From Candidatus Poribacteria bacterium (lineage in GTDB: Bacteria; Poribacteria; WGA-4E; WGA-3G), in the NCBI GenBank assembly GCA_965242965.1, contig OZ251518.1:4224001-4288000 (forward strand): DNA of 64,000 nucleotides. Direction: 5' to 3'. The position numbers were made by a program, and so were the translations under genes. The stretch's first letter is position 1; every line of letters begins with the position of its first letter. This document shows positions 1-16,793 of the stretch, piece after piece. The notes under the pieces were generated by a model. That model was given only the letters and a program-made list of their open reading frames with translations, did no database searches and was not told the origin of the DNA.

Positions 1-1322
1 AACGCTGCGCGAGTTGTGAGCGAAGACCGGCGGTGATGCGTCACCCTCGGAGGCTCTGCGAGGCGTGCACCCGAAAGTCCGTTACCGGACGCATCGCCAA
101 ACGCAACGTCACCCCTGAGGACTTGCATCACTATTTGCAGGTGCTGCACCCCTGGGCTCCCTCCAGCCAAAACGCTCAAGGGGAATGGTGTCTCCAAGAC
201 TGGAGTTCGCTCTTTGAAACCTATCTAGAGGTTATGGGAAAAGCCGACTGCTATGCGCAGTCTACCGAGCACCTTGAAAAGATTGAGGGGCCCCGAGATC
301 TGGAGGATATCGCCACGGCAAGCAAACCCGGCGGTTTCGTGACATTCATCTACGCAGATGGCAACAACATGGGCAGCTATTTAGAGAATGTTGCAACACC
401 GGCACAGTACCGGCAGTTTTCGGAACGCGTGTTTCTCGCACTCCAGCAAGCGACATTTGACGCATTGGCGGTGCAGCTGACTCCCACTCAAAGGAATCGC
501 CACCCGTTTGAAATTGTCTCCATCGGCGGCGATGATCTGGTGCTAATTGTACCTGGCAGTAAGGCGTTTGAAGTCGTTCATGCTATCGGCGAAAACTTTG
601 ACAGGACGTTTGAGAGCCGCGCCCAGTTTGCTGAAACACTCCGTCCATCGCAACGATATACCCCGAAGGAATGGTTTGATAACCGAGAGATGCAACCCGC
701 GATAAGCCTCTCCCTTGGTTTTGTCATTGCAGCCGAACACACGCCCATTGCGTTCTTGGAGCATCTCGCCGGCAGCCTGCTGAAATCGGCGAAAAAACAA
801 GCGAAGACACTGAAAACACCGGACATCGGATACCTTGGCGGCACCGCGGATTTTCTGGTGCTGAAGTCGCTCTCCATGATTACCAGCGAACTGGGTGATT
901 TCCGGAAGCGGTTCTATCACTTCGGTGAAGAAGAAACGGACGCGCTCACGATGCGTCCCTTCACCTTGCATGAATTGGACGGCTTCATCAAAACAGTGCG
1001 CGCCTTCAAAGACAGCGAATTCCCGCGTTCCCAACTGTATCAACTGCGGCAATCGCTCCACCTCGGCAGGATGACATCAACACTAGAGTATCTCTACTTT
1101 CGCTGTCGGCTAAGCGATGGAAAAGGCGAAACACTGCAACGCGAGTTGGAAGAAAACTGGCAGGGAACTGAAAGAGGCGTGAACTTGGGACCGTGGTATC
1201 CAAAGGGCACGGAGCCGGAACGCTACGAAACGTTGCTGTTGGATCTGATTGAGGCGTATGATTTTATCGCCAGCACCAACGACGAAACGGAGAGGAACGC
1301 TAATGGCAGAAGCATCAATTGA
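1..1322 (+). CDS. cas10: Cas10 (type III large subunit), 5'-truncated by window edge
   Basis: Frame open from position 3 (RCASCE...CEAC Zn finger); Palm2 motifs FIYADGNNMG and SIGGDDL; first gene of a RAMP operon. Confidence 0.93.
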   Translation, partial: RCASCERRPAVMRHPRRLCEACTRKSVTGRIAKRNVTPEDLHHYLQVLHPWAPSSQNAQGEWCLQDWSSLFETYLEVMGKADCYAQSTEHLEKIEGPRDLEDIATASKPGGFVTFIYADGNNMGSYLENVATPAQYRQFSERVFLALQQATFDALAVQLTPTQRNRHPFEIVSIGGDDLVLIVPGSKAFEVVHAIGENFDRTFESRAQFAETLRPSQRYTPKEWFDNREMQPAISLSLGFVIAAEHTPIAFLEHLAGSLLKSAKKQAKTLKTPDIGYLGGTADFLVLKSLSMITSELGDFRKRFYHFGEEETDALTMRPFTLHELDGFIKTVRAFKDSEFPRSQLYQLRQSLHLGRMTSTLEYLYFRCRLSDGKGETLQRELEENWQGTERGVNLGPWYPKGTEPERYETLLLDLIEAYDFIASTNDETERNANGRSIN

Positions 1323-3171
1323 GAAACGGTGGAAAATTACTGCAACCGTTGATACCGCACTCTGTATCGGCGATAGCGGGGTTAGCGACACCTCCGCAGA
1401 CACGACAACCGTGAAGACGAGCGATGGGAGACTTTACATTCCTGCCTCAACCTTCAAGGGCACTTGGCGACACGCCTGTGAGGCAATTGCGCGCGGACAG
1501 GAACACTTCGTCTGCAACAGCCCACGTGCAGAAACGATGTGCGCGGAAGCCCACTGCGTTGTCTGTCAACTCTTCGGAGCACCGACGTTGGCGGCCAAAA
1601 TTTTCCTGAGCGATTTAGCCGCGGCGACAGAATTGGCGGCGCAATCTACCGAAATCCGAAACGGGGTGACTCTCAATCGCCAGCGAAGAACTGCTGAAGA
1701 ACAACGGCTCTATTTCACGGAAACGAGCTTATCCCACGCGGGCATTGCGTTTTCAGGGGATGTCACACTAGCGAATGAAGTTACGGAGGCACAGATTGAA
1801 CTGCTGAAGGCAGGACTTCAGGCCATTCACGCAATAGGAACGGGAAAATCACGCGGGCTCGGTTGGTTGAATATTGAAATTGAACGAGAGGAAAAGGAAA
1901 CTTTCGATGCAGGTTCATCAATAGAACCAGCTCTTTCAGAGGGGTTCACCGAGTTAGCTATTGAAGTCACCCTGCAGTCGCCGATGACTGCGGGTGGGCG
2001 CAAACCAACAGGACAAGCCGTTGAAGCGGTTCAATACGTTCGCGGTGGATTAATCCGCGGTGCTATAGCGAAGGCGTGGCTGGCAGCCCCTGAAAACGGT
2101 GAACCGGACGCTGACTTCCAGCAACTGTTCCTCAGTAACGAAGGCGGTATCTTCCGAAATTGTTATCCCGCCGCAAATGTCTTGCCCGCGACAGCAGTGG
2201 GATGCAAGGATTTCCCGGGGTTCCTCAGCGCAGGCGTTAGCGAAGCACACGGCATTTTTGATACGCTTTTGGAGCAACTCGCCTCGGAACACGCAAATTG
2301 GCTGATATCGCCCAATTGCCCGCATTGCGGCGGGCGCGTGGAAGCACAAACCGGGTTTTATGCACAACGAAACGATGCAACTTATGAACGGAAAACCGTC
2401 AACACTCGGCTGCTCACCCGCGTGGCTATCAACCGACATCGCAAGGTGGCAGAAGAGGGACTGCTCTATCACTTGACAGCCATTGATACGGTAGTAACTG
2501 AAAGCGGAACTGGCCGTTTGCACGGTTCCGCGCGAGTCCCATCACGCCTTGCAAGTCGCGTCGCGGAGACGCTGCAAAAACAGGTGCATCGCCTCGGCGG
2601 TGGCACATCGCGCGGGCTCGGCTGTGTCCACGTGAAGGTGCAACAATGCGAGCATCCCGACGCTTTGGCACAACGCATTCGCGATTTCAACGCCTTGTTG
2701 CAAGAGATATGGGAGGTGTATCGTCACCTCCCATCAGTAGCGATGGAAACGCTGGAAAGCACCTACTTCAGCATCGATTTGCAAGCCGACACACTGCTCA
2801 CTGCCGAAGATGGATGGCAACGCAGTATGGTGCTGAACGCGCCGATGCTGCAACAGATAACGGGATGTAATCTCCCAGTCAAACTCGTGCGCAGTTTCGC
2901 CAGTTACGATTATGTCAGCGGATGGAACGCGGCGTGGGGACTGCCAAAAGAGACAGCACTTGTCACGCGGATGGGGAGTGTCTTTGTGTTTCACACCCCG
3001 GATATTGATGCATGGATGCCGGTATTAAAGACGCTTGAAGAGCAGGGTATCGGCGCGCGGCGAGAAGAAGGGTTCGGGCAGATGTTGGTGTGTGCCCCGT
3101 TCCATCTCCGAACGCGAACAAAGGTTAAATGCGCAGCCCAGTGGCTGGGCAACGCGGAGGAATCGAAATGA
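1303..3171 (+). CDS. csx10: Cas7(Csm3-like)-Csx10/Cas5 RAMP fusion, type III-D
   Basis: N-terminal RAMP (YIPASTFKG, CxxC-LFG, GTGKSRGLG) fused to further RAMP domains (GGLIRGA, GGGTSRGLG, GIGARREEGFG); ATG 1303 overlaps cas10 end. Confidence 0.85.
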   Translation: MAEASIEKRWKITATVDTALCIGDSGVSDTSADTTTVKTSDGRLYIPASTFKGTWRHACEAIARGQEHFVCNSPRAETMCAEAHCVVCQLFGAPTLAAKIFLSDLAAATELAAQSTEIRNGVTLNRQRRTAEEQRLYFTETSLSHAGIAFSGDVTLANEVTEAQIELLKAGLQAIHAIGTGKSRGLGWLNIEIEREEKETFDAGSSIEPALSEGFTELAIEVTLQSPMTAGGRKPTGQAVEAVQYVRGGLIRGAIAKAWLAAPENGEPDADFQQLFLSNEGGIFRNCYPAANVLPATAVGCKDFPGFLSAGVSEAHGIFDTLLEQLASEHANWLISPNCPHCGGRVEAQTGFYAQRNDATYERKTVNTRLLTRVAINRHRKVAEEGLLYHLTAIDTVVTESGTGRLHGSARVPSRLASRVAETLQKQVHRLGGGTSRGLGCVHVKVQQCEHPDALAQRIRDFNALLQEIWEVYRHLPSVAMETLESTYFSIDLQADTLLTAEDGWQRSMVLNAPMLQQITGCNLPVKLVRSFASYDYVSGWNAAWGLPKETALVTRMGSVFVFHTPDIDAWMPVLKTLEEQGIGARREEGFGQMLVCAPFHLRTRTKVKCAAQWLGNAEESK

Positions 3172-3635
3172 GCCGAATAGAACACATTCCAGCGCAGCTG
3201 ACGACGGTGTTAATGGAAAAGGAAATTGGCTTGCGGATGGAAGTGCTTATCCCCAAGATGCAAAAGATGGCGAAAGACTACAACCTGCGCGAGGAACATT
3301 CGCCGTTCCGGAACGTGTTGAATGTCGCCACCGACGCAGCTGGCGGGATTGAGGTAACACAGAATTTTATCCGCTATCAACTCGGACGGAGCGGTGCCAA
3401 CCGGATATGGAGCAGCACCGTCGGCGGCAAAAAATTCGCTGTAGCATTGGTAGAGGCAATTGAAGGTTTACGCGACGAAGCGAAAATCGTCGTTGAGAGA
3501 ATGGGCGCGCATTTGGATACCAAGTTGGATGACGCATGGCTGCAGCGCGTGCATGTCCGCCTCATGCAGCTCTACCTCGGCAACCTCGTCCGTTACCAAG
3601 TGTTTCTGGCGAAGGAAAAAGGAGGAAGGAAGTAA
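3168..3635 (+). CDS. Cas11/Csm2-like small subunit
   Basis: ~155 aa alpha-helical protein (NFIRYQLGR, MQLYLGNLVR) between csx10 and cas7; 4-bp overlap with csx10. Confidence 0.75.
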   Translation: MSRIEHIPAQLTTVLMEKEIGLRMEVLIPKMQKMAKDYNLREEHSPFRNVLNVATDAAGGIEVTQNFIRYQLGRSGANRIWSSTVGGKKFAVALVEAIEGLRDEAKIVVERMGAHLDTKLDDAWLQRVHVRLMQLYLGNLVRYQVFLAKEKGGRK

Positions 3636-4447
3636 TGTTTGACACCTTTCATTCGCGACTCAATCTACAAGGCGAACTTGAAACGCTCACGGCGTTTCGC
3701 ATCGGTGCAGGCCGCTCAACCTCTCCTGTCAGCGCAGATCTGCCTGTCGTGCGCGATGCCGCGAATCTCCCCTACATCCCCGGCTCTAGTTTCAAGGGAG
3801 TGCTCCGTTCTTACGTTGAGAGCGTCATGCGGAGTTTGTCGGCTGAGACGCGCATCGTCTGCAATCCGACGGATAACCAGGTGCAGTGCATCACGTCAAA
3901 CCAGATGCAGAATCTTCGACAGGAGCGTGACAACCACCGATGGGACAGCGCGCGGTTCAGCGAAGAAATCTTGGCGCGAACCTGTTGGGTTTGTCAAGTC
4001 TTCGGTTCGCCTTGGTATGCATCCAAACTTCACATTCGCGACCTGCCCGTCCAGTCATCCCTCTGGTTTGGGCAATATCAGCAACGTGATGGTGTCGCGA
4101 TCGACCGCGATACCGAGACAGCCGCCAACCAGAAACTCTACGGTTACGAAGTCGTTCCAGCCGGCATCCGATTCGACTTTCGCGCCGTTGTTGATAACGC
4201 CGAGGATTGGCAACTCGGCCTGTTGTATACCGGGCTCGCTGCTTTTGAAAACAACCGTTTGACTCTTGGCGGTGGCAGCAGCCGCGGACTCGGGTTAGTC
4301 CACCTATCGCTTGCATCCGAATGCTACATCGACAAACAGCATCTGATGAAGCACCTGACAGCGGGATATGAAGGCGAAGCGGCAGAACGTCAGGCGTGGC
4401 TGCAAGCGTTTCACGCCAAAATCGAACAGCAATTGGAGACGCGGTAA
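3635..4447 (+). CDS. csm3: Cas7/Csm3-family RAMP
   Basis: RIGAG..SADLPVVRD, PYIPGSSFKG, CWVCQVFGS, GVAIDR, LGGGSSRGLG. Confidence 0.9.
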   Translation: MFDTFHSRLNLQGELETLTAFRIGAGRSTSPVSADLPVVRDAANLPYIPGSSFKGVLRSYVESVMRSLSAETRIVCNPTDNQVQCITSNQMQNLRQERDNHRWDSARFSEEILARTCWVCQVFGSPWYASKLHIRDLPVQSSLWFGQYQQRDGVAIDRDTETAANQKLYGYEVVPAGIRFDFRAVVDNAEDWQLGLLYTGLAAFENNRLTLGGGSSRGLGLVHLSLASECYIDKQHLMKHLTAGYEGEAAERQAWLQAFHAKIEQQLETR

Positions 4448-5394
4448 TGCACAAGCGGATTGTCAACCAAGCCACGATTGAACTCGCGATTTCGCCCGTG
4501 GGTCCACTGCTCATCAAAGCGGGCGACCAGGGGGCAGACCCGACGAAACCTGACATGGAGTTCGTTGAAACCTACCACGCGGGGGGCAGGAGCGTCTATC
4601 TCCCCGGGTCATCGCTCAAGGGCGCGATGAGGGCGCACTGCGAACGCATTGTCCGAACCATCGGCGGTGCAAACCCGAATGCAGGAAACGTTTGGACGTG
4701 TAACCCCTTGAAAGAGACAGAACCGTGCCGCAATTTGCAAACGGAGCATCAGGAAGATACCGCTGCTATCTACCGAAATTCATGCACTGTTTGCCAACTC
4801 TTCGGTAGCACCGATATCGCCGCACACGCACGTATCGCCGATGCCTATCCTGTTGAACTAGCCGACATTCAACTGGAAGAACGGAATGGTGTCGCGATCG
4901 ACCGCGTCTACGGTTCAGTAGCCTACGGCCCGTTCAACTTCCAAGTGCTGACAGCCGGCGAATTCATCACTAAAATTATGGTGAAAAACTTCACCACCGC
5001 GCAACTCGCGCTCATCGCCCTGGCTATCCGCGATTTTGCAGAACAGCGGGTTGGACTCGGTTTCGCCAAATCACGTGGGTTAGGACAGGTGAATATGAAA
5101 GTTACGCGCGTGGAAATCCGGTACCCAACTGTCATCGTTGAAGAGGGACAATTGCAAATACTTGGACTCCACCGCGGGCGATTTGGCGACAATTGCCTCA
5201 TCGGTGCCGGCGACTTCGTCAACACGGATGAGCGGCAGGCTTACGGGTTCCCCGAATCCGACACGGTTGAGGCAACCGTGCATGCCCAACCCGATGCAAT
5301 TCTCGGTGCCACTCTCGTTTTTGAGGAACCAGATGCCATCACAGCACTATGGCGAGGCTGTGTGCAGTCTTGGCGGGAAACTGTCAGCCTGTAA
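4447..5394 (+). CDS. Cas7/Csm3-family RAMP
   Basis: YLPGSSLKG, CTVCQLFGS, GVAIDR, LGFAKSRGLG; translationally coupled to the previous gene. Confidence 0.88.
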   Translation: MHKRIVNQATIELAISPVGPLLIKAGDQGADPTKPDMEFVETYHAGGRSVYLPGSSLKGAMRAHCERIVRTIGGANPNAGNVWTCNPLKETEPCRNLQTEHQEDTAAIYRNSCTVCQLFGSTDIAAHARIADAYPVELADIQLEERNGVAIDRVYGSVAYGPFNFQVLTAGEFITKIMVKNFTTAQLALIALAIRDFAEQRVGLGFAKSRGLGQVNMKVTRVEIRYPTVIVEEGQLQILGLHRGRFGDNCLIGAGDFVNTDERQAYGFPESDTVEATVHAQPDAILGATLVFEEPDAITALWRGCVQSWRETVSL

Positions 5395-5395
5395 C

Positions 5396-5417
5396 GGCGG
5401 ATGTCTTCACATCCGCC
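5396..5417 (+). other. Intergenic hairpin within the cas operon
   Basis: GGCGGATGT-CTTC-ACATCCGCC between cas7 and csx19; no U-tract. Confidence 0.45.
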
Positions 5418-5431
5418 CGTGAGGAGAACCG

Positions 5432-5920
5432 ATGGAGAAAGCAATTGTTGCAACCGCGCACGTGCCAGACGTGTCAACGCTCGTAGCGCAAATTGACACG
5501 CTCACGTTCGGCGAACGAACCTATTATCTGCTCCAACGGCCTGATTCCATCTCCGATTGGACAGCCGGCTGTCCTGACACCGCCGAAATTCAAAAATATG
5601 CCCTCGGCCGACTGTTTGGAGAAAACGGCGAACTGCGTTGGCAGAAAATCGATACCGGCTATACGCTACTTTGGCTTTCCGAAGGGGAATTGCCGGCAGG
5701 ATTTGCACCGATGGGGACATGGGAGATGACAAAATCCCCAGACCAGCTGCTACTCGGCGGCGGCGAGACGGAGCCGTGGCGGGATACGCGCATCCCCCGA
5801 AAACTAGCATATCCCATGGCATGGAGTCAGTCGCCAAAGGTGCGGGTAATTCAGTATCGTGACAGAGACTTGCAAACTATCCGGTTCACGCGCTATACCG
5901 GTTTCATTCAGGGAGGTTAA
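5432..5920 (+). CDS. csx19: Csx19-like type III-D subunit
   Basis: 162 aa with GRLFGENGELRW, RIPRKLAYP and a terminal VIQY..TRY pattern; typical position in III-D operons. Confidence 0.75.
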   Translation: MEKAIVATAHVPDVSTLVAQIDTLTFGERTYYLLQRPDSISDWTAGCPDTAEIQKYALGRLFGENGELRWQKIDTGYTLLWLSEGELPAGFAPMGTWEMTKSPDQLLLGGGETEPWRDTRIPRKLAYPMAWSQSPKVRVIQYRDRDLQTIRFTRYTGFIQGG

Positions 5921-5924
5921 AAAC

Positions 5925-6911
5925 ATGGGATACCCCCGACATGGCGGAAGAAGTGGCGGCAGACAGTCTCAGCAGCCAGACCCCAAACCTTTCGACTTCG
6001 TATCCCTGCCCCATCGTGTAGCTCGGAAAAAGCCCATTGGGCATGAACAGTATCACGCGGCACACCTAACAGGCCAGCTGCAAGGCACCCTTGAGGCACT
6101 CTCGCCTCTCCATATCGGCAGCGGTATCATTGAACTGGGGCAGGATGTTGAACTCATCAAAACGGTGGTGCGGACAGGCGGGAGAGTCGTCATACCCGGC
6201 AGCTCCCTCAAAGGGGCGATTCGGAGCATCGCCGAGGCGATTTCGGAGAGCTGCGTTTGCAAAGTCTCACGAGATGCACAACGCGCACTACCTAGAGACT
6301 TTCAGGAATGCAGACAGAAAGAACGCTTGTGCATCGCTTGTCGGATATTCGGTGCGATGGGATTTCAGGGAAACGTTGCAATCCAAGACGCACCCCACAT
6401 TCACGGACAAATCGTCACGGCACAGGTTCCCGAACTCTATCGCCCGCGAATCCGCCGAGGCGCGCGAGACGTGCCAGGGCGCAAATTTTACATGCACGGA
6501 CAAGTCGCCTCGGGCCGAACCCCTGTAGAGGCATGCGATGTCGGTTCCAGGTTCCGATTCATTATGCAGGTAGATAACCTGACGCAAGCGGAGTGGGGAC
6601 TCTTGCTTACAGCCTTAGGCCAACACCCCGACTATCCGTTCAAACTGAAGATGGGCGGAGCTAAGCCAGTCTGCTTCGGTTCAATGGACGTTCAAATAGA
6701 ACAGATCCAACTTGAAGACCAGGCTCGCGACCGGTATTTGGCGTGGGATGTGCGTCCGGAAGCCGCAAAAACCGGCGCGCCGTTGGAAATGTGGATACGC
6801 GACTGCATTGCGCAAGCAGCAGATTCACTCATCGTGCAGGATTTACTGGAAGACCTGGCTCAAATCCTGCGGCACCCAAACCAACGCAACTGCCCATCTG
6901 GGCTCTATTGA
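5925..6911 (+). CDS. Cas7-family RAMP (terminal III-D Cas7)
   Basis: PFDFVSL, SPLHIGSG, IPGSSLKG, CIACRIFG, GRKFY, KMGGAKPVCFG. Confidence 0.88.
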   Translation: MGYPRHGGRSGGRQSQQPDPKPFDFVSLPHRVARKKPIGHEQYHAAHLTGQLQGTLEALSPLHIGSGIIELGQDVELIKTVVRTGGRVVIPGSSLKGAIRSIAEAISESCVCKVSRDAQRALPRDFQECRQKERLCIACRIFGAMGFQGNVAIQDAPHIHGQIVTAQVPELYRPRIRRGARDVPGRKFYMHGQVASGRTPVEACDVGSRFRFIMQVDNLTQAEWGLLLTALGQHPDYPFKLKMGGAKPVCFGSMDVQIEQIQLEDQARDRYLAWDVRPEAAKTGAPLEMWIRDCIAQAADSLIVQDLLEDLAQILRHPNQRNCPSGLY

Positions 6912-6922
6912 GGAAGGCACTG

Positions 6923-7552
6923 ATGCAAACGCAGCAGATGAACGAAAAACTGTGGAAAATCGCCCACAAACTCGCGTTTGATTTAGTTGACTGGGGCACC
7001 GATCCCAATGAACTCGGCAAAGTCATCGCGTTTGTGCGTCGGCACCAAGACGATACCGACGCGAAATCGCGGCTCATGCTGCTGGTGCAGCGGTTGGCGA
7101 GTAGCCGCAACGCGCTTATCCGGAGCCGGCAAACACAGGGATTTTATCAAAATATTCAAGAAGCATTCAGCGAACATCTCCGCGATATCAGCAATCCCGC
7201 TGAAATCCTGCTTATTCTCGGCTGGAGCCTACGGTTGATGCGTTACTATCGTGCGGAACCGACGTTTGCTGTTGAATATGAATTTGAGCCGTCCCCGGTG
7301 AATTCACCTGCGCCGCCTACACCGAAACCGGATCCACCGAAACCGGATCCACCGAAGGTCAAGGCCGGGGACAGGGTAAATGCGACGGTTCTGAAGAAGG
7401 ATGGCTTCAAGGTGACAGTGCGATTAGAGACTGACGCACGCGAAGAAGTCTCCTTTGAAGGTCCTTATTATCCCGGCCTGGTCGGCGCACAAGTTAAGGT
7501 GAGGGTCCAGAGGGTTGATAAGGGCGGTCGGATAACCAAAGTCATTCCGTAG
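6923..7552 (+). CDS. Type III-associated protein: alpha-helical domain, Pro-rich linker, S1/OB-like C-terminus
   Basis: RBS AGGAAGG before ATG 6923; helical region ending ILGWSLRLMRYY; PSPVNSPAPPTPKPDPPKPDPP linker; basic beta-rich tail KVKAGDRVNATV...VKVRVQRV. Confidence 0.7.
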   Translation: MQTQQMNEKLWKIAHKLAFDLVDWGTDPNELGKVIAFVRRHQDDTDAKSRLMLLVQRLASSRNALIRSRQTQGFYQNIQEAFSEHLRDISNPAEILLILGWSLRLMRYYRAEPTFAVEYEFEPSPVNSPAPPTPKPDPPKPDPPKVKAGDRVNATVLKKDGFKVTVRLETDAREEVSFEGPYYPGLVGAQVKVRVQRVDKGGRITKVIP

Positions 7553-7581
7553 AAAATACGCTTGAGTCTGGAGGTAAAGGC

Positions 7582-8832
7582 ATGATTTTTAGAAATGCAG
7601 TTGCTGAAAGGGATGGCATCAATCCGCGCGAGGAACTGGAGAAATTCGTGATCGGTAATCGCGCGCACATTAAACAGAGTCGTGTTAATGAGAAAATCGG
7701 CCATGAGTTAAAATCCTGCGACGAAGATGTTTGGCTCACGGAACTGGTTCGGACTCAGAATCCTTATACTGTTCTTGAGGCATGCTTTGCCTCGGGGCGA
7801 TTGCATAATTTGGCTGCCAACCGCCGCTGGGTTAGTCTTGACTCGGAATATGAAGGACGCGAACTTGTGGGGGAAATTCTAGAGGCGTTGGGCTTTAGAA
7901 AGGAAGTAAAGCCTTCGGGTCTTACGCAAATTCGAGAAGAAATCGATCCGCGCTTGGAACCTGCCGAAGTTGACCCACAACGGTTTGCAGCAGAAGAAGC
8001 CCTTGACTTTGCCGCCGGAATGGGAACAGTCATGGAAGCATTGTTGGATAAATTATTCCGTTTCCATAGCGAAACGTTCCTCCGGCATGCTGAACTAACA
8101 GCGGCGGACATTGACAAACTACGTGATCAGTATCGGCGAACGCGCCCACGAACGCTAGGTCGTTATGTGGGACTCCAGAATGACGAAAAGGGCGATAAAC
8201 GTGGATTTTTGGCAAGACTAATGAAATTTGCAGAAGAAGACGCAGCACTTATCGCCTACTGTGACAGGTACTTTCAGCGGATAGTGCCCTTGGACGAGAG
8301 TGAGATTGCTGCTGTTGGTATGTTCACGATATACCGCAACTGGATTGTCCATAATATATGGGACTGGACCCAATACCCGCGCATCCTAAATAATGCTCAA
8401 ACTAACTTGTTAAGCATGGATGAGGCAACTCGCGGCGAATGGGAGAGAAGTTGGCAGCAGGTAACTGAAGCGGTTGATTGGGCAAAGAAAAACGGGGATC
8501 CCGAACCCGCTCTTCCAAAACGTGAGATGCTCCAAAGGATGGCTGTTTTCTTCAGGGCCTTCCTTAAATCGCTATCCCAAGGAATCTACCCCAAAGTCAT
8601 TGTGATGCAGTCCTACGTCGTCGACAATTATGGAACTCATCAAATTACCGCGGAGGACGATGCAGGAGAGACAGTCTTCCTTACCGACTGTGAATTCGAG
8701 CCATTTACGGAGTTCTACTATCTGGCACATACCAATCTTGTTGGCATTGAACCAATTCTCGTGAGGAAAGATGAACTAGGGAAGTGGGGAATTCAACAGG
8801 ATAGCATGGACGCATCACAGAAGGAGGCTTAA
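7582..8832 (+). CDS. Uncharacterised CRISPR-embedded protein with HEPN-like RxxxxH motif
   Basis: GGAGG RBS; 416 aa; MEALL...TLG...YRNWIVH pattern; beta-rich C-terminus; no recognisable CARF or SAVED domain. Confidence 0.65.
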   Translation: MIFRNAVAERDGINPREELEKFVIGNRAHIKQSRVNEKIGHELKSCDEDVWLTELVRTQNPYTVLEACFASGRLHNLAANRRWVSLDSEYEGRELVGEILEALGFRKEVKPSGLTQIREEIDPRLEPAEVDPQRFAAEEALDFAAGMGTVMEALLDKLFRFHSETFLRHAELTAADIDKLRDQYRRTRPRTLGRYVGLQNDEKGDKRGFLARLMKFAEEDAALIAYCDRYFQRIVPLDESEIAAVGMFTIYRNWIVHNIWDWTQYPRILNNAQTNLLSMDEATRGEWERSWQQVTEAVDWAKKNGDPEPALPKREMLQRMAVFFRAFLKSLSQGIYPKVIVMQSYVVDNYGTHQITAEDDAGETVFLTDCEFEPFTEFYYLAHTNLVGIEPILVRKDELGKWGIQQDSMDASQKEA

Positions 8833-8835
8833 AGC

Positions 8836-9843
8836 ATGCCGAAAAACGTGCTCTTATCATCACTCGGATTATCACCCGCTGTTGTCACCGAAACGATTGA
8901 TGCCCTTCAAAACACCGGCATCCGAATTGACACGGTGGTGCTGCTCACCACTGCAAACGAACGGATTGTCAACACATACATTCCGCTACTGCAGGACGAC
9001 TTTGCCGATACTTACGGGGGAAGAATTGAACTCACCTATGCTCCCATTACGAACAATGACATTTGGACAGCACAGGATAATCTGGAATTCATCGGGTTAG
9101 CCACCGCGTATCTGAATACCCATCGGAAGCGGGGAGATAACGTCTATGTCAGCATCGCAGGCGGCAGGAAAACGATGTCCGCCGCTTTAGCAATTGTGAC
9201 GCAACTTTTCGGCGCGAAAGGGTTGTATCATGTCCTCACCCTGGAAGAGGTCGAGAAACAACACCACCCTTACGAATCGCTGAGAAACGCACCTGAAAAA
9301 CGTCGCGAGGCTCTTCACCCAGATGTCCAGTTGATGGAGCTCGTCTCCATTCCCGTCGTCGGGCTGTTTCCGTATCTGAGCCAAATCACCGGTGTTTTGC
9401 AGGGAGATACCGCTCAGGCTGAAGCGAATGTGACAGATTTGCTTCGTGACAATGAACTCATTGATGACGAGGGAAAGATAACGCCGGCAGGCAGCAACCT
9501 CTTGAAAATCTTGAGCGAAGTGGAAACCGCGCCGGAACCCTCCACTATCCCGCCGAACCAAAAAGAGATTCGCGTCCCCCGCCATAATATCCCGAAACAG
9601 GAAGAGGAGAAGCTGCGGACTATCGCCAACCGGATATGCTATGATCCGTTTGTGAATCGCATTGCAACCACGGATTGGAACTCGCAAACGCAGCAGCCTT
9701 ACCGAATCAACCCGGATAATTCGATTACCCTCTTTATCCCGAAGACCACGAAGGGGTTAACGCTTAGAATCTTTACCACGGCGAACACACGAGCGCAAGC
9801 CGAATACGTCGCGCAAAGATTGTTGCTCGCCGTGAGCCGATAA
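8836..9843 (+). CDS. CARF (NE0113/Csx14-like) + wHTH + C-terminal putative nuclease domain
   Basis: LLSSLGLSPAVVTET and SIAGGRKTMS CARF motifs; LRDNELIDDEGKITPAG wHTH-like segment; ~95 aa alpha/beta tail ending FTTANTRAQAEYVAQRL. Confidence 0.85.
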   Translation: MPKNVLLSSLGLSPAVVTETIDALQNTGIRIDTVVLLTTANERIVNTYIPLLQDDFADTYGGRIELTYAPITNNDIWTAQDNLEFIGLATAYLNTHRKRGDNVYVSIAGGRKTMSAALAIVTQLFGAKGLYHVLTLEEVEKQHHPYESLRNAPEKRREALHPDVQLMELVSIPVVGLFPYLSQITGVLQGDTAQAEANVTDLLRDNELIDDEGKITPAGSNLLKILSEVETAPEPSTIPPNQKEIRVPRHNIPKQEEEKLRTIANRICYDPFVNRIATTDWNSQTQQPYRINPDNSITLFIPKTTKGLTLRIFTTANTRAQAEYVAQRLLLAVSR

Positions 9844-9874
9844 CACCATTGAAATCGGAGAGACGGAGAGAATC

Positions 9875-10864
9875 GTGTCTGCACAGAAACCGTTATCAAA
9901 CGCCTTGCGAATGACAAACTTCCAATTCGCCCGATACCGCTTCACCTATACCGTCCAAGAACCGCTACGGATGCCACCCGACAAAGGCAACATCTTCCGC
10001 AGCCGACTCGGATACACACTGCGCGACATCACCTGCCTGGGACACGAAAACGCATGCGCAAAGCAGTGCCAACACCCAGAACGGTGCGTCTACTCGCAAT
10101 GTTTTGAAACACCCGTGCCGGAAAACGCGCCGTTTCTCCGCGGACAACCCTTCGCGCCGCATCCGTTCATACTCGAACCACCGCTCACAGGGAAACAGCA
10201 TTACGCTCCCGGCGATACCTTCGCCTGCACACTCATCCTCATCGGCAGCGCCATCAACCTGCTCCCGTGGCTAGCGTTCACCTTCAATGAAATCGGCAAA
10301 CGCCGCATCGGACTTCGCGGCCGGCGCGGGAAGTGTGAACTCAACACCATTGAGAGTCTTCCTGCGCGCGGCACCGAGCCCCCCGAAACGATTTATACCT
10401 CCCAAACCGAGAGGCTAATGGGAGCAGGTAGGCTTCTCCGCCTTGACGATGTGCTACGCGGCGCGCCGCACGTCACCGACACGCTTACACTTGATTTCCG
10501 AACGCCGACGAGCCTCAAAGTGGAGGGACGCTGGATGCGCGACGTGACGTTTGAATTGCTCATCCGCAATCTCCTCCGACGCATCCGGTTCTTGAGTTAC
10601 TTCCATTGTGGCGAAGACCTGGGTGTGGATGCACATGCTTTGCTGAAGGCGGCGAGGGCTGTCACGCATACCTCGCACTTGCAATGGGTGCGGAAGGAAC
10701 GCCGGTCTTTCCGAACAAAGCGTGTTGTCCCGATGGGTGGGTTCGTTGGTAAAGTTCGGTTCGCGGGAGAGTTGTCCCCGTTTCTGCCGCTGATTTTCTT
10801 GGGAGAATATCTCCACATTGGGCATCACACTGCATTTGGGTTCGGGCAGTATCGCATCTGTTAA
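9875..10864 (+). CDS. cas6: Cas6 pre-crRNA endoribonuclease
   Basis: PHPFILEPP, MGGFVG and C-terminal G-loop HIGHHTAFGFGQY; adjacent to the array; start GTG 9875 or ATG 9911. Confidence 0.93.
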   Translation: MSAQKPLSNALRMTNFQFARYRFTYTVQEPLRMPPDKGNIFRSRLGYTLRDITCLGHENACAKQCQHPERCVYSQCFETPVPENAPFLRGQPFAPHPFILEPPLTGKQHYAPGDTFACTLILIGSAINLLPWLAFTFNEIGKRRIGLRGRRGKCELNTIESLPARGTEPPETIYTSQTERLMGAGRLLRLDDVLRGAPHVTDTLTLDFRTPTSLKVEGRWMRDVTFELLIRNLLRRIRFLSYFHCGEDLGVDAHALLKAARAVTHTSHLQWVRKERRSFRTKRVVPMGGFVGKVRFAGELSPFLPLIFLGEYLHIGHHTAFGFGQYRIC

Positions 10865-10937
10865 CAACAGCAAAGGAGAGGTTCATTTCGGGGAGAGGAA
10901 TTTTCCTTCACGCTGCTGAAAAAATTCAAAAGAAAAA

Positions 10938-10966
10938 TTGACATTTCCGTTCATTTATGGTATCAT
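10938..10966 (+). promoter_or_regulatory. sigma70-type promoter in the CRISPR leader
   Basis: TTGACA-17 bp-TATCAT with TGG before the -10, in the AT-rich leader 10865-11085. Confidence 0.8.
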
Positions 10967-11085
10967 TAATAATGAAAGAGCGGACAAGGGTTCTTGCGTT
11001 TTTTGGCAGAACCTGCGCCCGATTTGAATCGCATTTGGATCTAGGCTTTTGAGAACTACGCACAGAGGGTTTCAAAAGCATAGGG

Positions 11086-12694
11086 GTTTGGATACACCGT
11101 CCCGGTTGAAGGGAATAGAAACTATTAATAATATAGCCGAATGGGATCGGAATTCTTAAGTTAGGAAACGCCTTCCCGTTTGAAGGGAATAGAAACTGAC
11201 CACCAGTGCATTCCGCTGCCACCATGCCAGCAGACCCGTTTGGAAACGCCGTCCCGGTTGAAGGGAATAGAAACACAAACGAAGCCTTGGCTGCCAGCGC
11301 AGAGACATCCGTTCGGAAACGCCGTCCCGGTTGAAGGGAATAGAAACGCCGCAATCATACCAGCAGACGCTCGGAATCTTGCAGTTTGGAAACGCCGTCC
11401 CGTTTGAAGGGAATAGAAACGTCAAGGTCCGATGGTTAAGTTGGTGCGAGGACCAGGTTTGGAAACGCCGTCCCGGTTGAAGGGAATAGAAACAGTATCC
11501 GTCCTTTCTTGATGGCGACTGAATGCCCCGTGCATCGTTCGGAAACGCCGTCCCGTTTGAAGGGAATAGAAACTTTACTTTTTTGCCGATTGCAACGCCT
11601 CGACAATCCTGTCGTTTGGAAACGCCGTCCCGTTTGAAGGGAATAGAAACTTTAGCCATCCACTATTCCAAGTGTCATAATACTTTTGGAAACGCCTTCC
11701 CGGTTGAAGGGAATAGAAACTTCCCGATGTAGCCTTCTTCGCGGGCTTGGTCTAGCGTAAGTTTGGAAACGCCTTCCCGGTTGAAGGGAATAGAAACGTG
11801 CCAGCCTGATCGACGGCTGCATACGCATTCTTGACTTGTTTGGAAACGCCTTCCCGGTTGAAGGGAATAGAAACAACTGGCTAAATCAAGTTCGGATGAG
11901 AGCGTTAAGATATGTTTGGAAACGCCTTCCCGGTTGAAGGGAATAGAAACTCGTAAGACACTTGTGATACCTTGTCCCCGTTGAGTTTGGAAACGCCTTC
12001 CCGGTTGAAGGGAATAGAAACTTTCCTTCGGTCAGCCTTAAGTTGACATTCCCCGTTGAGTTTGGAAACGCCTTCCCGTTTGAAGGGAATAGAAACTGAT
12101 AATGGCTCGGCATCGCTATCCGTCTTGACGTTTGGAAACGCCTTCCCGGTTGAAGGGAATAGAAACCCATGATGAACCGCAGCTAGCTCTTTATTGCCAT
12201 CGTTTGGAAACGCCTTCCCGTTTGAAGGGAATAGAAACTTGCCTCGACCTCGTTGAAATTCATATCAAATCCCAAGTGTTTGGAAATGCCTTCCTGTTTG
12301 AAGGGAATAGAAACGCGAGGGAAGCCCGCTGCGCTACCTCTTTCGCAAGGTTGAGTTTGGAAACGCCTTCCCGGTTGAAGGGAATAGAAACTTTAGAATC
12401 CGGAGATTTTCTTCGGCATCAAAAAGCCGAGTTTGGAAACGCCTTCCCGGTTGAAGGGAATAGAAACCCAGTCGTCTTACAGGTTAGCGCATGATTAATT
12501 ATCGTTCGGAAACGCCTTCCCGGTTGAAGGGAATAGAAACATAGCCGCACACCGATGCTGTCCACCGGCAAGCCACAAGTTTGGAAACGCCTTCCCGGTT
12601 GAAGGGAATAGAAACTCATAGTACTCGATCGTAGGTCCATATTTGTCGCAATAGCATGTTCAGAAACGCCTTCCCGCTTGAAGGGAATAGAAAC
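11086..12694 (+). CRISPR. CRISPR array, 22 repeats / 21 spacers (33-43 nt)
   Basis: 37-bp consensus GTTTGGAAACGCCTTCCCGGTTGAAGGGAATAGAAAC; ATAGAAAC 3' end and upstream leader give + orientation. Confidence 0.98.
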
Positions 12695-12759: not shown

Positions 12760-13164
12760 ATGAAATATGTAGTGAATCTGGAAGGCCACGATGGATTATT
12801 CAGTTGCAAAACTGAATTCAAATGCGGCGACGAATTCTTCGCCCGCGGCATCAGCAACTACGGCGATGACGACATCGACTACCTGAGCAACGAACTCGCA
12901 AAAGACATCTCCGGCGGAATTTACGCGCATTTCGAGGAGGTCATCCAAGAAGCCGAAACCAACGGCGAAGATAGCGAGAAGGCTTGGGAAGAACAGCACG
13001 ACGAAAACAACGTCTATCGTTACCGCGACGGCGATGACGCATGGGAAATCGCCATTCAACACGGCTGGGGCGTTGTGACAGATACCGTCGCCCTCACCAC
13101 CGGCGAGGCAATCATGCCGCACTTGCGCGAAGAGTTGGAGGCATACATCGCCAGCACCGCCTAA
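12760..13164 (+). CDS. Small, highly acidic hypothetical protein
   Basis: 134 aa ORF rich in D/E, directly downstream of the array and followed by a hairpin at ~13179-13204. Confidence 0.7.
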   Translation: MKYVVNLEGHDGLFSCKTEFKCGDEFFARGISNYGDDDIDYLSNELAKDISGGIYAHFEEVIQEAETNGEDSEKAWEEQHDENNVYRYRDGDDAWEIAIQHGWGVVTDTVALTTGEAIMPHLREELEAYIASTA

Positions 13165-13214: not shown

Positions 13215-13470
13215 TCGGTAGGCACCCCGGGTCTCCATACCTCCCGGTAGGAGAGGCCTCGGGTCTTGATTTTCCCGTAGCGCGGGGGCCCTCGGATGCC
13301 ATACGCGCATCCGAGCGGGTTTCCCCCGCGATCGTTCCCGGTAGGAGAGACCTCCTGGTCTCGATTTTTTGTCACTATCGGGACAAGGATGTCCCTCCTA
13401 CGGGAAGTCGGGACAAGGATGTCCCGCCTACCGAGTGCATATCGGGACAAGGATGTCCCGCCTACCCATC
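13215..13470. repeat. GTAG-REP cluster
   Basis: GTAGGAGAGACCTCCTGGTCTCGA, GTAGCGCGGGGG... and three TCGGGACAAGGATGTCCC..CTAC hairpins. Confidence 0.8.
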
Positions 13471-13562
13471 GCAATGCACATCCTATTTCGCGAATTGCAT
13501 CAATTTCACGGATATGATACGATATACACAGAATTGAGATGATTTGCTGGAGGTTAGAAACT

Positions 13563-14663: not shown

Positions 14664-15400
14664 ACGTAGCGCGGGGGCCTGTCCCCCGCGCGAACATCCG
14701 CCGATTCACCGTAGCGCGGGGGCCTGTCCCCCGCGATCTCTCAGGTGTCTGAAGCAGGATTTTCAAGATTCACAAGATTTTCAGGATTATCTTCCTCGCG
14801 GCGGGGAAACCTCTGCTGAAAAGGGCGGCACTTTAACTCCGTTTTCCCGCGGCGCAGCATCGGTTGGAGACTAGAGTTCCTAATCTTGCTAATCGTGATA
14901 ATCGTGTAAATCCTGCTTCAGACGATTTGCTTGGCGAGGGACAGGCCCTCGCCCTACGGTGAAAGGGGCATGCACAGCAGACACGCGTTGCATCAACCCG
15001 ATGCAACGCGAGGGACAGGTTTTCCCACCGCCCTACGGTTCGGCGGCGCGGTTTGGATAACTACGAACTAAAACGCACATTAAGGTCCTACAGACCTTAG
15101 GCATCTTCGCGTCGCTGCGCGCTATAGACATTAAGGTCTTACGCCCTAAAGAGATGTTTTATTGGAATAAAACTTCCTAATCCTGCGCTAGACAGCACGG
15201 CGAGGGACAGGCCCTCGCCCTACGGTTCGTGGGCATGCACAGCAGACACGCGTTGCATCAATCCGAGGCACGGCGAGGGACAGGCCCTCGCCCTATGGTG
15301 AACAGGCGCAAACTGCCGAACGAATCATAGCGCGGGGCCCTGTTCCCCGCGCGAACATCCGCCCATTCACCGTAGCGCGGGGGCCTGTCCCCCGCGATCT
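14664..15400. repeat. REP/REPIN cluster with 9-bp GGATTTTCA-type repeats
   Basis: Multiple GTAGCGCGGGGGCCTGTCCCCCGCG and GGCGAGGGACAGGCCCTCGCCCTAC copies; inverted GTCTGAAGCAGGATT / AATCCTGCTTCAGAC; ACATTAAGGTCCTA units. Confidence 0.85.
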
Positions 15401-15503: not shown

Positions 15504-16661
15504 CTAATCTTCCTCTTGAGACCCTTCTGAGAGTAGCATCTCGGCGATGTCTTTCGGCAGCACAACATCGTACTGCTTCTCAAAGTTGTGAATCTCCTGG
15601 TTAAACAAATCCTTGAGTTTCAGGACTTGATTCTCAGCAGCCTTGAGATTCGCTCCTCGATTCCTAGCAGCCTCCAGATCTGCTCTGGCCTCGTCCCATT
15701 CCTGTCTGCGTAACCGAATTATGGCTCGCTCAAAATAGAACAGGGGCTCATTGGGATTCAGTTCTATCGCCTTGTTATAGTCCTCAATGACACTCTTGAA
15801 GACATCGTCAAGGTTAAAATCCTCGCTATTAGCCAGGGCCAGGGCGCGATTGCGATAGGCCATGGGATCTTCTGGACTGAGTTTAATAACCTCGGTATAG
15901 CTAGCGGCGGCGCTACTATAATGGCCTTCTTGGAATTGCGATTGGGCGTGAAGATTATAGTTTTGGCTGCTGTGTTCCAGCTTCCGGGCTATCTCATAAT
16001 TCCCTTTAAAACGCTCAAGGGCGTGGGGAAGAATCTCCCGCCATTTGATAAACCCGTGGATATCATTGTAGATACGCTCTTCAGATATGTCATGGCACCT
16101 TTCCAAGTAGTCTAACATAGGCCGTTTGAGTTCTCTACGGATAAACACGATACACGCTGGTTGGACAAAACCTGTCTTTGATTCAACAAGGATGCTCTTC
16201 TGGGATTCAATACGGCTAATTGTCCGGAGCGGGGGCACGACTCTGTAGTTATCAGTGCACTGCGGTTTTCTGGGCAGTAAAATAACCCTACCTGTTCCGC
16301 CTTCTAGCTCGCCACATGCGAAGAAGAGAGCAATGAGGTAATCAGTCGTGAAGTCTATCAAGTTGGTTTTACAGCCATAATGCTGGAGCTGGGTTAGAAT
16401 TTCATCATCACCGAGATCGGATATTTCGGGGAGATAGGTTTTAACCTTATCCAAAATTACGTTTTGGCTGCCCATAATGTCGGGAGCCTCTATTTTACTC
16501 GTAAGATAGGGCCGATAGAGGTCCGAGCATACTTTTGGGTGACATTCGGCTTCACCCCTGTAGATGTAATCTCCGAGCACAGATTTGTCCGCTATCTCGC
16601 GGATTTTCAGCCAAACTTCGTCTGGCACATGTTGAGAATCCGATGGGTTGATCTTGTTCAT
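15504..16661 (-). CDS. FRG domain + TPR protein
   Basis: YIYRGE, LQHYGCKTNLIDFTTDYLIALFFAC and RIESQKS (FRG motifs); C-terminal TPRs (AYRNRALA, DYNKAIELNP). Confidence 0.88.
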   Translation of the reverse strand: MNKINPSDSQHVPDEVWLKIREIADKSVLGDYIYRGEAECHPKVCSDLYRPYLTSKIEAPDIMGSQNVILDKVKTYLPEISDLGDDEILTQLQHYGCKTNLIDFTTDYLIALFFACGELEGGTGRVILLPRKPQCTDNYRVVPPLRTISRIESQKSILVESKTGFVQPACIVFIRRELKRPMLDYLERCHDISEERIYNDIHGFIKWREILPHALERFKGNYEIARKLEHSSQNYNLHAQSQFQEGHYSSAAASYTEVIKLSPEDPMAYRNRALALANSEDFNLDDVFKSVIEDYNKAIELNPNEPLFYFERAIIRLRRQEWDEARADLEAARNRGANLKAAENQVLKLKDLFNQEIHNFEKQYDVVLPKDIAEMLLSEGSQEED

Positions 16662-16793
16662 GTCGCTTCGCTCCGTTAAGGTTAACCGGATAACTCGATC
16701 GATTCTAAAAACATCGCTGCAACCGACGGAAACGCACCACACGATTGCAGCGATGGAAGGACGGATCCGAACATCCGCCCTTACCCAAACACC

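Follow-up and report, generated by a model that had tools for sequence, protein, structure and literature searches.

Type III-D CRISPR-Cas systems have been described in several forms (III-D1, III-Dv as well as III-D2; PMC13294483 and PMC12669027, as far as the available parts of these papers go), and these have in common with the locus described here a Cas10 that carries a GGDD motif and no detectable HD domain, Csx10, Csx19, several Cas7 proteins, Cas11, Cas6 and an array. The locus, which continues upstream, occupies positions 1-12694 of a 64,000-nucleotide stretch of the genome of a sponge symbiont, Candidatus Poribacteria bacterium (assembly GCA_965242965.1, contig OZ251518.1, positions 4,224,001 to 4,288,000 of the forward strand); the whole stretch is called the window below. 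In the same portions of that literature, a Cas7-Cas5 fusion is common to III-D2 and this locus, and separate Cas11 and three Cas7 genes are found both here and in III-D1; this locus has neither Cas7x3 nor Cas7-2x. It differs from the described type III-D systems in having CARF effectors in the place of CorA, and in the addition of Csx21. It is a complete and ordinary-looking type III-D immune locus, and its only novel part is one accessory gene, acc2, which represents an uncatalogued and rare family.

The original prediction, made from the letters of the window, had treated three accessory genes between the last cas7 and cas6 as an unusual cassette that forms the signalling output of the locus. 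Our analysis argues for a different arrangement: this is probably a standard III-D locus that signals by cyclic oligoadenylate (cOA) and has a variable accessory slot, in which acc2 is an extra, CARF-less HEPN-like RNase accessory. The three genes, named here csx21, acc2 and acc3, are the following:

7582-8832, + strand: acc2, 416 residues, with a helical N-domain, a HEPN-like helical core with Y251-R252-N253 and H257, and a C-terminal five-strand beta domain.
6923-7552, + strand: csx21, which three PADLOC Csx21 models match over their full length, with E between 1.9e-37 and 1.7e-32.
8836-9843, + strand: acc3, 335 residues, a CARF (Crn1/Csx14-type)-winged helix-turn-helix (wHTH)-'DUF2103-like' protein, matching PADLOC 'CARF5--CARF' PDLC01907 (E 1.1e-61) and Pfam Cas_NE0113 (E 1.6e-34).

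The domain sketches of the original prediction hold up: the helical-OB protein is Csx21, the CARF-less protein has an Rx4H motif and the third is a CARF-wHTH-X protein. Its view that the set matches no known effector survives for acc2, the middle gene, for which searches of Pfam, NCBIfam and PADLOC returned nothing at E ≤ 0.1. It fails for Csx21 and acc3, which match catalogued families over their full length; PADLOC, which had been proposed as a check, assigns both to its families, matches core genes, Cas11 with a III-D-specific model, and leaves acc2 unmatched.

Fifteen close homologues of acc2 were found among 5.8 billion proteins, none of them named, and a scan of GTDB genomes returned one locus only. 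When a profile was searched against 1.84 billion representatives, 243 matches reached E ≤ 0.001 and 18 of these E ≤ 1e-30. An Atlas search led to unnamed clusters only, with HEPN_RiboL-PSP as a sub-threshold lead at 0.85, and a scan of JGI metagenomes with an alignment of 14 acc2 family sequences (A1) produced 55 pattern matches, none of which was confirmed. The 14 members of A1 have no Pfam family in common even at E ≤ 10, the best, TFR_dimer, appearing in two of them. No CARF model of Pfam, NCBIfam or PADLOC matches acc2 at E ≤ 0.1, and the N-terminal CARF domain that marks Csx1 and Csm6 was thus not found in it. A CARF-less HEPN accessory of type III-D is not mentioned in the literature covered, which does not extend to the supplements of three surveys (PMC6546367, PMC11229360 and PMC12409355), where the family might be listed under a cluster number.

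The likeness of acc2 to HEPN RNases lies in its motif and, more weakly, in its predicted fold. The motif, RNWIVH at residues 252-257, conforms to the Rx4-6H pattern of HEPN proteins; Y251-R252-N253 is invariant in A1, in which 23 columns are invariant at 34-47% identity, and 22 of the 26 close homologues have RN with a His three to five residues on. The AlphaFold2 (AF2) model (predicted local distance difference test score, pLDDT, 84.8; predicted template modelling score, pTM, 0.78) is all-helical as far as residue 335, and a five-strand beta domain (338-395) closes it. Structural alignment with VIA-align brought up three HEPN-titled chains: 7ae2_A (Z 6.7, root-mean-square deviation (rmsd) 3.9, 128 of 141 residues aligned), 2hsb_A (Z 6.1, 124 of 126) and 8xdj_A (Z 6.0, 124 of 130). 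These small chains, two of them toxins of HEPN-MNT modules (7ae2, 8xdj) and the other AF_0298 (2hsb), align with weak scores over nearly their whole length to residues 109-340 of the model; acc2 differs from the toxins in being three times larger, in having no MNT partner gene and in its CRISPR rather than toxin-antitoxin context. Further matches were 5yep_B, 1wwp_B, 1ylm_B and Roquin 4txa_A, which we take to be HEPN-fold proteins, and all HEPN-like chains sit on residues 109-380 of the model, mostly on 111-340. The modelled fold likeness is weak, and is supportive only when combined with the motif.

Modelling also predicts that acc2 is a homodimer, with a median ipSAE of 0.61 against 0.00 for the best of three controls; 20 of 30 solved homomers and 1 of 23 solved monomers attain this mark, counts that hold only roughly here because our own alignment was used. 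At least 80% of the contacts are shared between runs, and the partner pLDDT is at least 81. Among the confident contacts, strand 342-352 is paired across the two-fold axis, and residues 1-3, 54-61, 105 and 108 also take part. In its RN-x(3-5)-H motif, helical core, predicted dimer and place in a type III effector slot, acc2 is like the CARF-HEPN RNases Csx1 and Csm6, and it differs from them in that it has no CARF domain, that a helical domain is added at its N terminus and that a beta domain at its C terminus serves as the predicted dimer contact; none of the Csx1 or Csm6 models matches its sequence.

Distant relatives of acc2 are mostly longer proteins in which the entire acc2 module forms the C-terminal part. 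Ten of these long proteins were scanned: four start with a Macro domain, two contain a Ser/Thr kinase domain, one has weak coiled-coil matches, and the other three gave nothing. The proteins with an N-terminal Macro domain or with a Ser/Thr kinase domain are P0043, P0047, P0052, P0064, P0051 and P0062. Those with a Macro domain often have a second RNxxxH motif in mid-protein, and the layout of those with a kinase domain recalls kinase + HEPN (KEN) RNases.

The distribution of acc2 within the phylum shows what kind of place it occupies. In 176 genomes the A1 profile finds it at full length in seven, which belong to one family and four genera. Csx21 is more widespread, with matches in 24 of the 176 at E ≤ 1e-10, 18 of them near full-length, and it occurs without acc2 in 11 of those 18 genomes. 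Wherever acc2 is present in the loci that were fetched (the window and all six others), it stands directly after csx21, which in turn directly follows the last cas7 in the five sister loci that contain the operon; the sixth (L016), a contig fragment of 4.2 kb, has csx21 and acc2 only. Two further genomes, G164 (locus L024) and G147 (L030), have remnants of acc2 of about 40 codons just downstream of csx21 (E 2.5e-6 and 8.4e-6), which shows that these lineages have lost the gene, either because it decayed or because it was replaced.

When 19 Poribacteria csx21 loci were compared (the 18 whose Csx21 is near full-length, plus L035, where the match is partial), the gene after csx21 was acc2 in seven, a 119-residue Crn2-like STIV_B116 protein in five, a CARF4-PD-D/ExK protein in two and Csm6 in four, L035 among them, with one locus ending at a contig edge. 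The 119-residue protein is followed by Csx1 in four of its five loci. One representative of each type of slot gene was scanned, the rest being assigned by evident sequence likeness: L032 gave a STIV_B116-like match (E 9.9e-15) and Csx1 (E 2.4e-94), L021 CARF4-PD-D/ExK (E 9e-42), and the Csm6 representatives L031 and L035 E 4.5e-128 and 2.8e-125. CARF effectors are still found downstream in the loci that have acc2. L002, which was scanned, has CARF7-RelE and CARF4-PD-D/ExK, and Crn2-like, Csx1-like, CARF4-like and Csm6-like frames follow acc2 in L012-L015 by sequence likeness, two of them with tblastn E ~1e-16. Since CARF genes still follow it, acc2 is an optional insert that heads a hypervariable effector slot; it adds to the canonical cOA effectors and replaces none. 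An orthologue of acc3 (69% identity) is present in one of the six other acc2 loci, where it lies upstream of cas10, so that acc3 is found in two of the seven acc2-bearing loci, the window's included. Because the three accessory genes are distributed independently of one another in the sister genomes, they are no cassette, and the accessory region is a variable slot without fixed content. The survey of gene neighbourhoods that had been suggested for these genes therefore went against their grouping.

The second part of the argument lies outside the window, where 12 kb of upstream sequence were inspected. About 190 nucleotides upstream of cas10, on the + strand, is a csx1-type gene of 595 residues that matches PADLOC PDLC01840 (CARF2--CARF_HEPN_CARF) over residues 13-593 with E 9.8e-148 and contains an RNALHH motif; given this match and this motif, the gene is, judged by its sequence, an intact Csx1-family CARF-HEPN-CARF effector. 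The locus thus holds a canonical cOA effector, and the claim that the three accessory genes form its signalling output gives way: the 'unusual cassette' is shown to result from the window's edge and the hypervariable effector slot. Directly upstream of csx1 is a second array with 18 copies of the 37-nucleotide repeat of the locus (G000:C1:4219244-4220546; L001:7244-8546), and the full layout is array - csx1 - cas10 - ... - cas6 - array.

Csx21, the constant upstream neighbour of acc2, was tabulated by Shah et al. (2018) as 'Type III-D associated' with unknown function (PMC6546367, from the part of it available); the first accessory gene is like that family over its full length, and no difference from the published description, to the extent available, was found. 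In the best PADLOC match (E 1.9e-37) residues 4-207 align with profile positions 2-198 of 201. In the alignment the helical N-domain is conserved and the Pro-rich linker varies in length; after it comes a small beta (S1/OB-like) C-domain, which reaches only E 0.018 against Pfam S1. A search against PDB sequences gave no match to Csx21. The idea that its N-domain is a relative of Cas11 was rejected (hhalign probability 0.6%). Csx21 is possibly an additional subunit of the effector complex that is specific to this lineage, or else a close associate of the complex. Separately, its C-terminal beta domain (residues ~140-209) recurs at 49-57% identity within frames of 621-808 residues in other Poribacteria (L036-L039, L041 and L042, from genomes G093, G097, G075 and G174), two of which have tandem copies.

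acc3 aligns with PDLC01907 over its full length, residues 3-328 corresponding to profile positions 2-316 of 325. It has 115 relatives, some 32 of them close; some 16 are full-length, with 32-41% identity, and in this last group the source of one gives the name 'ring nuclease' and that of another 'Csx14'. In the AF2 model (pLDDT 87.6) the CARF domain superposes on that of Crn1 Sso2081 (7ygh_A) with Z 19.7 and rmsd 2.1 over 161 of 178 residues (Foldseek E 1.8e-8) and on the CARF of Cad1 with Z 18.4, and CARF and wHTH together on SSO1393 with Z 15.0 over residues 1-231; the VIA-align matches cover residues 1-176 or 1-231 only. acc3 has in common with Crn1 (Sso2081, Sis0455), the CARF-wHTH proteins Sso1393/Sis0811 and Csx14 the CARF fold, the GGRK motif, equivalents of Ser11 and Glu17 and a helical insert after the CARF core, followed by the wHTH. 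Crn1 uses Ser11, Arg105, Lys106 and Tyr133 for catalysis and binding, and Glu17 is named as well (PMC10018336, in the available part); the equivalents in acc3 are S13 for Ser11, E19 for Glu17 and R111/K112 for Arg105/Lys106, of which E19, R111 and K112 are invariant in an alignment of its family (A2).

acc3 differs from Crn1 and Csx14 in its further C-terminal domain of 90 residues, which the model shows as beta-alpha-beta(4)-alpha at residues 244-334. This part resembles two described proteins: the C-terminal part of PADLOC CARF7--CARF_DUF2103 aligns with residues 194-328 (E 4.2e-10), and residues 236-328 align with NsnC of Menshen (E 4.8e-5), whose 'DUF2103-like' domain is described in the available text of PMC12065111 as having a predicted effector role and no structural relatives. 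The CARF clade of acc3 is PADLOC 'CARF5', not 'CARF7' as in CARF7-DUF2103, and a BLASTP comparison with the CARF7-DUF2103 protein of L002 was not significant (E 0.15). An Atlas search with the C-terminal part gave no usable match. Within this domain only T314 and T315 are invariant, with A316 and Q321 nearly so, and it therefore offers no catalytic hint.

Taken together, gene content and order, family matches, motif conservation, genome distribution and the predicted folds and dimer suggest the following scheme, in which all enzymatic activities and the identity of the signal are inferred. Judging by family membership, Cas6 would cut CRISPR RNAs (crRNAs) from both flanking arrays, and Cas10, Cas7-Csx10, Cas11, the three Cas7 proteins and Csx19 would form the effector complex. 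Binding of target RNA would turn on the GGDD palm of Cas10, which would then make cOA, likely cyclic tetra-adenylate (cA4) because the locus holds CARF domains of both the Csx1 and the Crn1 type. Signalling by cOA is the most likely mode, since CARF effectors are present, CorA is absent and HD domains are rare in III-D (3% of III-D Cas10 have an HD nuclease domain, according to the available part of PMC11229360); with CARF effectors in the place of CorA, cOA is expected and not SAM-AMP. The messenger would activate the upstream Csx1 CARF-HEPN-CARF RNase as the main effector. acc3 may bind the same signal, and could either degrade it, as a ring nuclease off-switch, or couple it to its C-terminal output. 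acc2 would be a dimeric HEPN-like protein, most likely an extra RNase effector or modulator, without a CARF or SAVED domain of its own.

Several observations weigh against this reading, most of them against the role given to acc2. The assignment of acc2 to HEPN is not secure. In four of the 26 acc2 homologues Lys replaces the motif His, RNLT[LM]K being common to these four, and the predicted interface consists of the conserved N-terminal motif and the C-terminal strand and excludes the RN..H residues 252-257, so that it does not bring out a composite HEPN active site. No PDB entry matches the model by Foldseek at E ≤ 0.001, and the A1 profile finds nothing credible among PDB sequences (best E 0.071). 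The Z scores of 6 to 6.7 are within the range that the tool states to be common for helical bundles, and unrelated four-helix bundles reach Z 8.6. acc2 also evolves faster than its neighbours, its identity across sister loci being 34-43% where the core keeps 50-73% and Csx21 59-64%; and, since two genomes have only its remnants, it is dispensable. On the side of acc3, the scores are under the NCBIfam cut-offs for both Csx14 (TIGR03642, 82.3 against 90.35) and Crn1 (NF040581, 46.3 against 125), and Tyr133 of Crn1 is not kept, its position being taken by V139. Finally, no adaptation genes are present in the III-D locus.

A more far-reaching form of the proposal is that acc2 represents a new class, a dimeric HEPN-like RNase without CARF or SAVED domain that is switched on by a new route, either docking on the III-D complex via Csx21 or a messenger bound at a pocket on the dimer axis, and that the module, fused to Macro or kinase domains in over 200 distant relatives, would then be a widespread defence effector; we hold this to be unlikely. 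The first of these routes, taken by itself, would make acc2 an effector or modulator that is independent of the signal, tethered to the III-D complex, for example via Csx21, and acting on RNA held by the complex with no diffusible messenger. The unbroken adjacency to csx21 in the window and the six sister loci is what this leads one to expect, and six further acc2 homologues, on contigs identical in length to one that bears a Csx21 homologue, appear to share a contig with it. It would also account for a protein without CARF or SAVED domain whose entire module recurs as the C-terminal part even in distant relatives: since the module recurs as a unit, no part of it resembles an added sensor. However, Csx21 itself is independent of acc2, standing alone in most genomes that have it, and a place beside csx21 may merely mark the start of the variable slot; we regard tethering as rather unlikely.

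We think it unlikely that acc2 itself senses a nucleotide messenger, in a pocket on the two-fold axis of the dimer, as a new sensor-effector of neither CARF nor SAVED type. The residues that are best conserved beyond YRN do lie in the predicted interface (NPY.VLE.CF at 59-69, F105 and the strand at ~336-350), and in sister loci the slot holds effectors that are activated by cOA. Yet any obligate dimer is expected to conserve its interface residues, and the fusion of the module to Macro or kinase domains elsewhere suggests that other domains do the sensing.

That acc2 is instead a passenger gene, inert as an enzyme or in decay, that plays no part in immunity appears improbable. The fast divergence, the two genomes with remnants alone, the loss of the motif His in some homologues and the base composition of the region (G+C 0.48-0.52 across 7001-10000, against 0.53-0.56 in the core) all fit such a passenger. 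Full-length open frames with retained synteny in seven genomes of four genera, the invariant columns of A1 despite its low overall identity, and the confident fold and dimer predictions do not. Least probable, and by our estimate very improbable, is that csx21, acc2 and acc3 form one three-part signalling output in which the CARF protein senses and the CARF-less HEPN and OB proteins execute, which the gaps of only 29 and 3 nucleotides between the genes and the pairing of a protein without its own sensor with a sensor without a recognised catalytic domain might suggest, but which is contradicted by the near absence of acc3 from the other acc2 loci (and its position upstream of cas10 in the single case), by the many genomes with Csx21 and no acc2, by the canonical Csx1 in the same locus and by the CARF7-RelE, CARF4-PD-D/ExK, Csx1 or Csm6 genes that other acc2 loci hold instead.

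The reading of a standard cOA-signalling locus with acc2 as an extra accessory rests on a core that is typical of III-D: a GGDD palm, Csx10, Csx19, multiple Cas7 proteins, Cas11, Cas6 and an adjoining array were all found. Eleven co-directional genes on the + strand and the array make up positions 1-12694, with neighbours that overlap by 1-20 nucleotides or are separated by gaps of at most 37, in the order cas10, cas7-csx10, cas11, cas7, cas7, csx19, cas7, the three accessory genes, cas6 and array. In this respect the original prediction of a tight, co-directional type III-D operon with an array is borne out gene by gene, family matches included, as is its statement that the GGDD motif of Cas10 is intact. 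Apart from the accessory genes, the features are:

1-1322, + strand: cas10, its 3' 439 codons, matching Pfam Cas10-Cmr2_palm2 (E 3.8e-15); the 5' end is cut by the window edge.
525-536, + strand: codons of the GGDD cyclase motif of cas10, located by a script motif search and seen in the translation.
1303-3171, + strand: cas7-csx10 (Cas7-Cas5) fusion, overlapping cas10 by 20 nucleotides.
3168-3635, + strand: cas11, the III-D small subunit, matching PADLOC Csm2 (E 8.6e-24) and a III-D-specific model (E 3.5e-22); 4-nucleotide overlap.
3635-4447, + strand: cas7 (Csx7), TIGR02581 at 200.1 bits (cut-off 108.05); 1-nucleotide overlap.
4447-5394, + strand: cas7 (Csx7-like), TIGR02581 at 109.4 bits, just over the cut-off of 108.05, and PADLOC Csm3 (E 2e-47); 1-nucleotide overlap.
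5432-5920, + strand: csx19, PADLOC Csx19 (E 2.9e-12); NCBIfam TIGR03984 at 20.8 bits, under the cut-off of 35.
5925-6911, + strand: cas7, related to the last Cas7 domain of gRAMP, TIGR03986 (E 3.2e-35, under cut-off) and Pfam RAMPs (E 2.4e-17).
9875-10864, + strand: cas6, PADLOC Cas6 (E 2e-88) and Pfam CRISPR_Cas6 (E 5.3e-20).
11086-12694, + strand: CRISPR array, 22 repeats of 37 nucleotides and 21 spacers, with a spacing of 70-80 nucleotides.

The full cas10 frame, of at most 881 residues, begins some 1.3 kb ahead of the window; L001:10677 is one possible start and Met15 (L001:10719) the more likely one, and alignments with relatives set in at about residue 12-15. It matches PADLOC Cas10 with E 3.5e-61 and the Pfam palm2 family with E 8e-17. 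No HD-domain family matches this 881-residue frame, the first ~230 residues of which match no model. The N-terminal part of the cas7-csx10 product is RAMP/Csx7-like, and residues 220-604 are Csx10 (TIGR02674, 327.9 bits, cut-off 177.3). Between the last cas7 and csx21 the gap is 11 nucleotides.

A search of the genome for the 37-nucleotide repeat gave 60 matches, against none for a reversed control pattern. They include a third array, which has 20 copies, is on the minus strand and lies 1.75 Mb away (G000:C1:2468370-2469843). The sole Cas1 of the genome is a Cas4g/Cas1g fusion, the signature of type I-G (633.8 bits, over the cut-off), which adjoins a Cas6-like frame 1.2 Mb away (G000:C1:5472306-5473943; L043:874-2511); the III-D locus is therefore without adaptation genes of its own, and its arrays would need the Cas4g/Cas1g module for spacer acquisition, or acquire no spacers.

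Right after the array is a frame of 134 residues (12760-13164, + strand) that may not be a gene and has no family match in Pfam, PADLOC or NCBIfam. Farther downstream are clusters of GC-rich palindromic direct repeats of REP/REPIN-like character (families D2-D5, at 13378-13473 and 14667-15400). A 412-residue protein with an FRG domain and TPR is encoded at 15507-16742 on the - strand; it matches the PADLOC candidate defence family PDC-S15 (E 2.2e-13) and may be a separate defence gene beside the CRISPR locus.

The locus itself adds little to what is described, being a known III-D core with Csx1, Csx21 and a Crn1/Csx14-type accessory, and the main yield is one uncatalogued accessory family, acc2. 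Type III effectors have been found mainly through their fusions to CARF or SAVED domains, and an accessory that has neither is therefore missed by surveys of this kind. Should acc2 be an active RNase, it would be controlled in a way that is new to type III CRISPR systems, and its Macro- and kinase-fused relatives suggest reuse of the module in other defence contexts, outside CRISPR.

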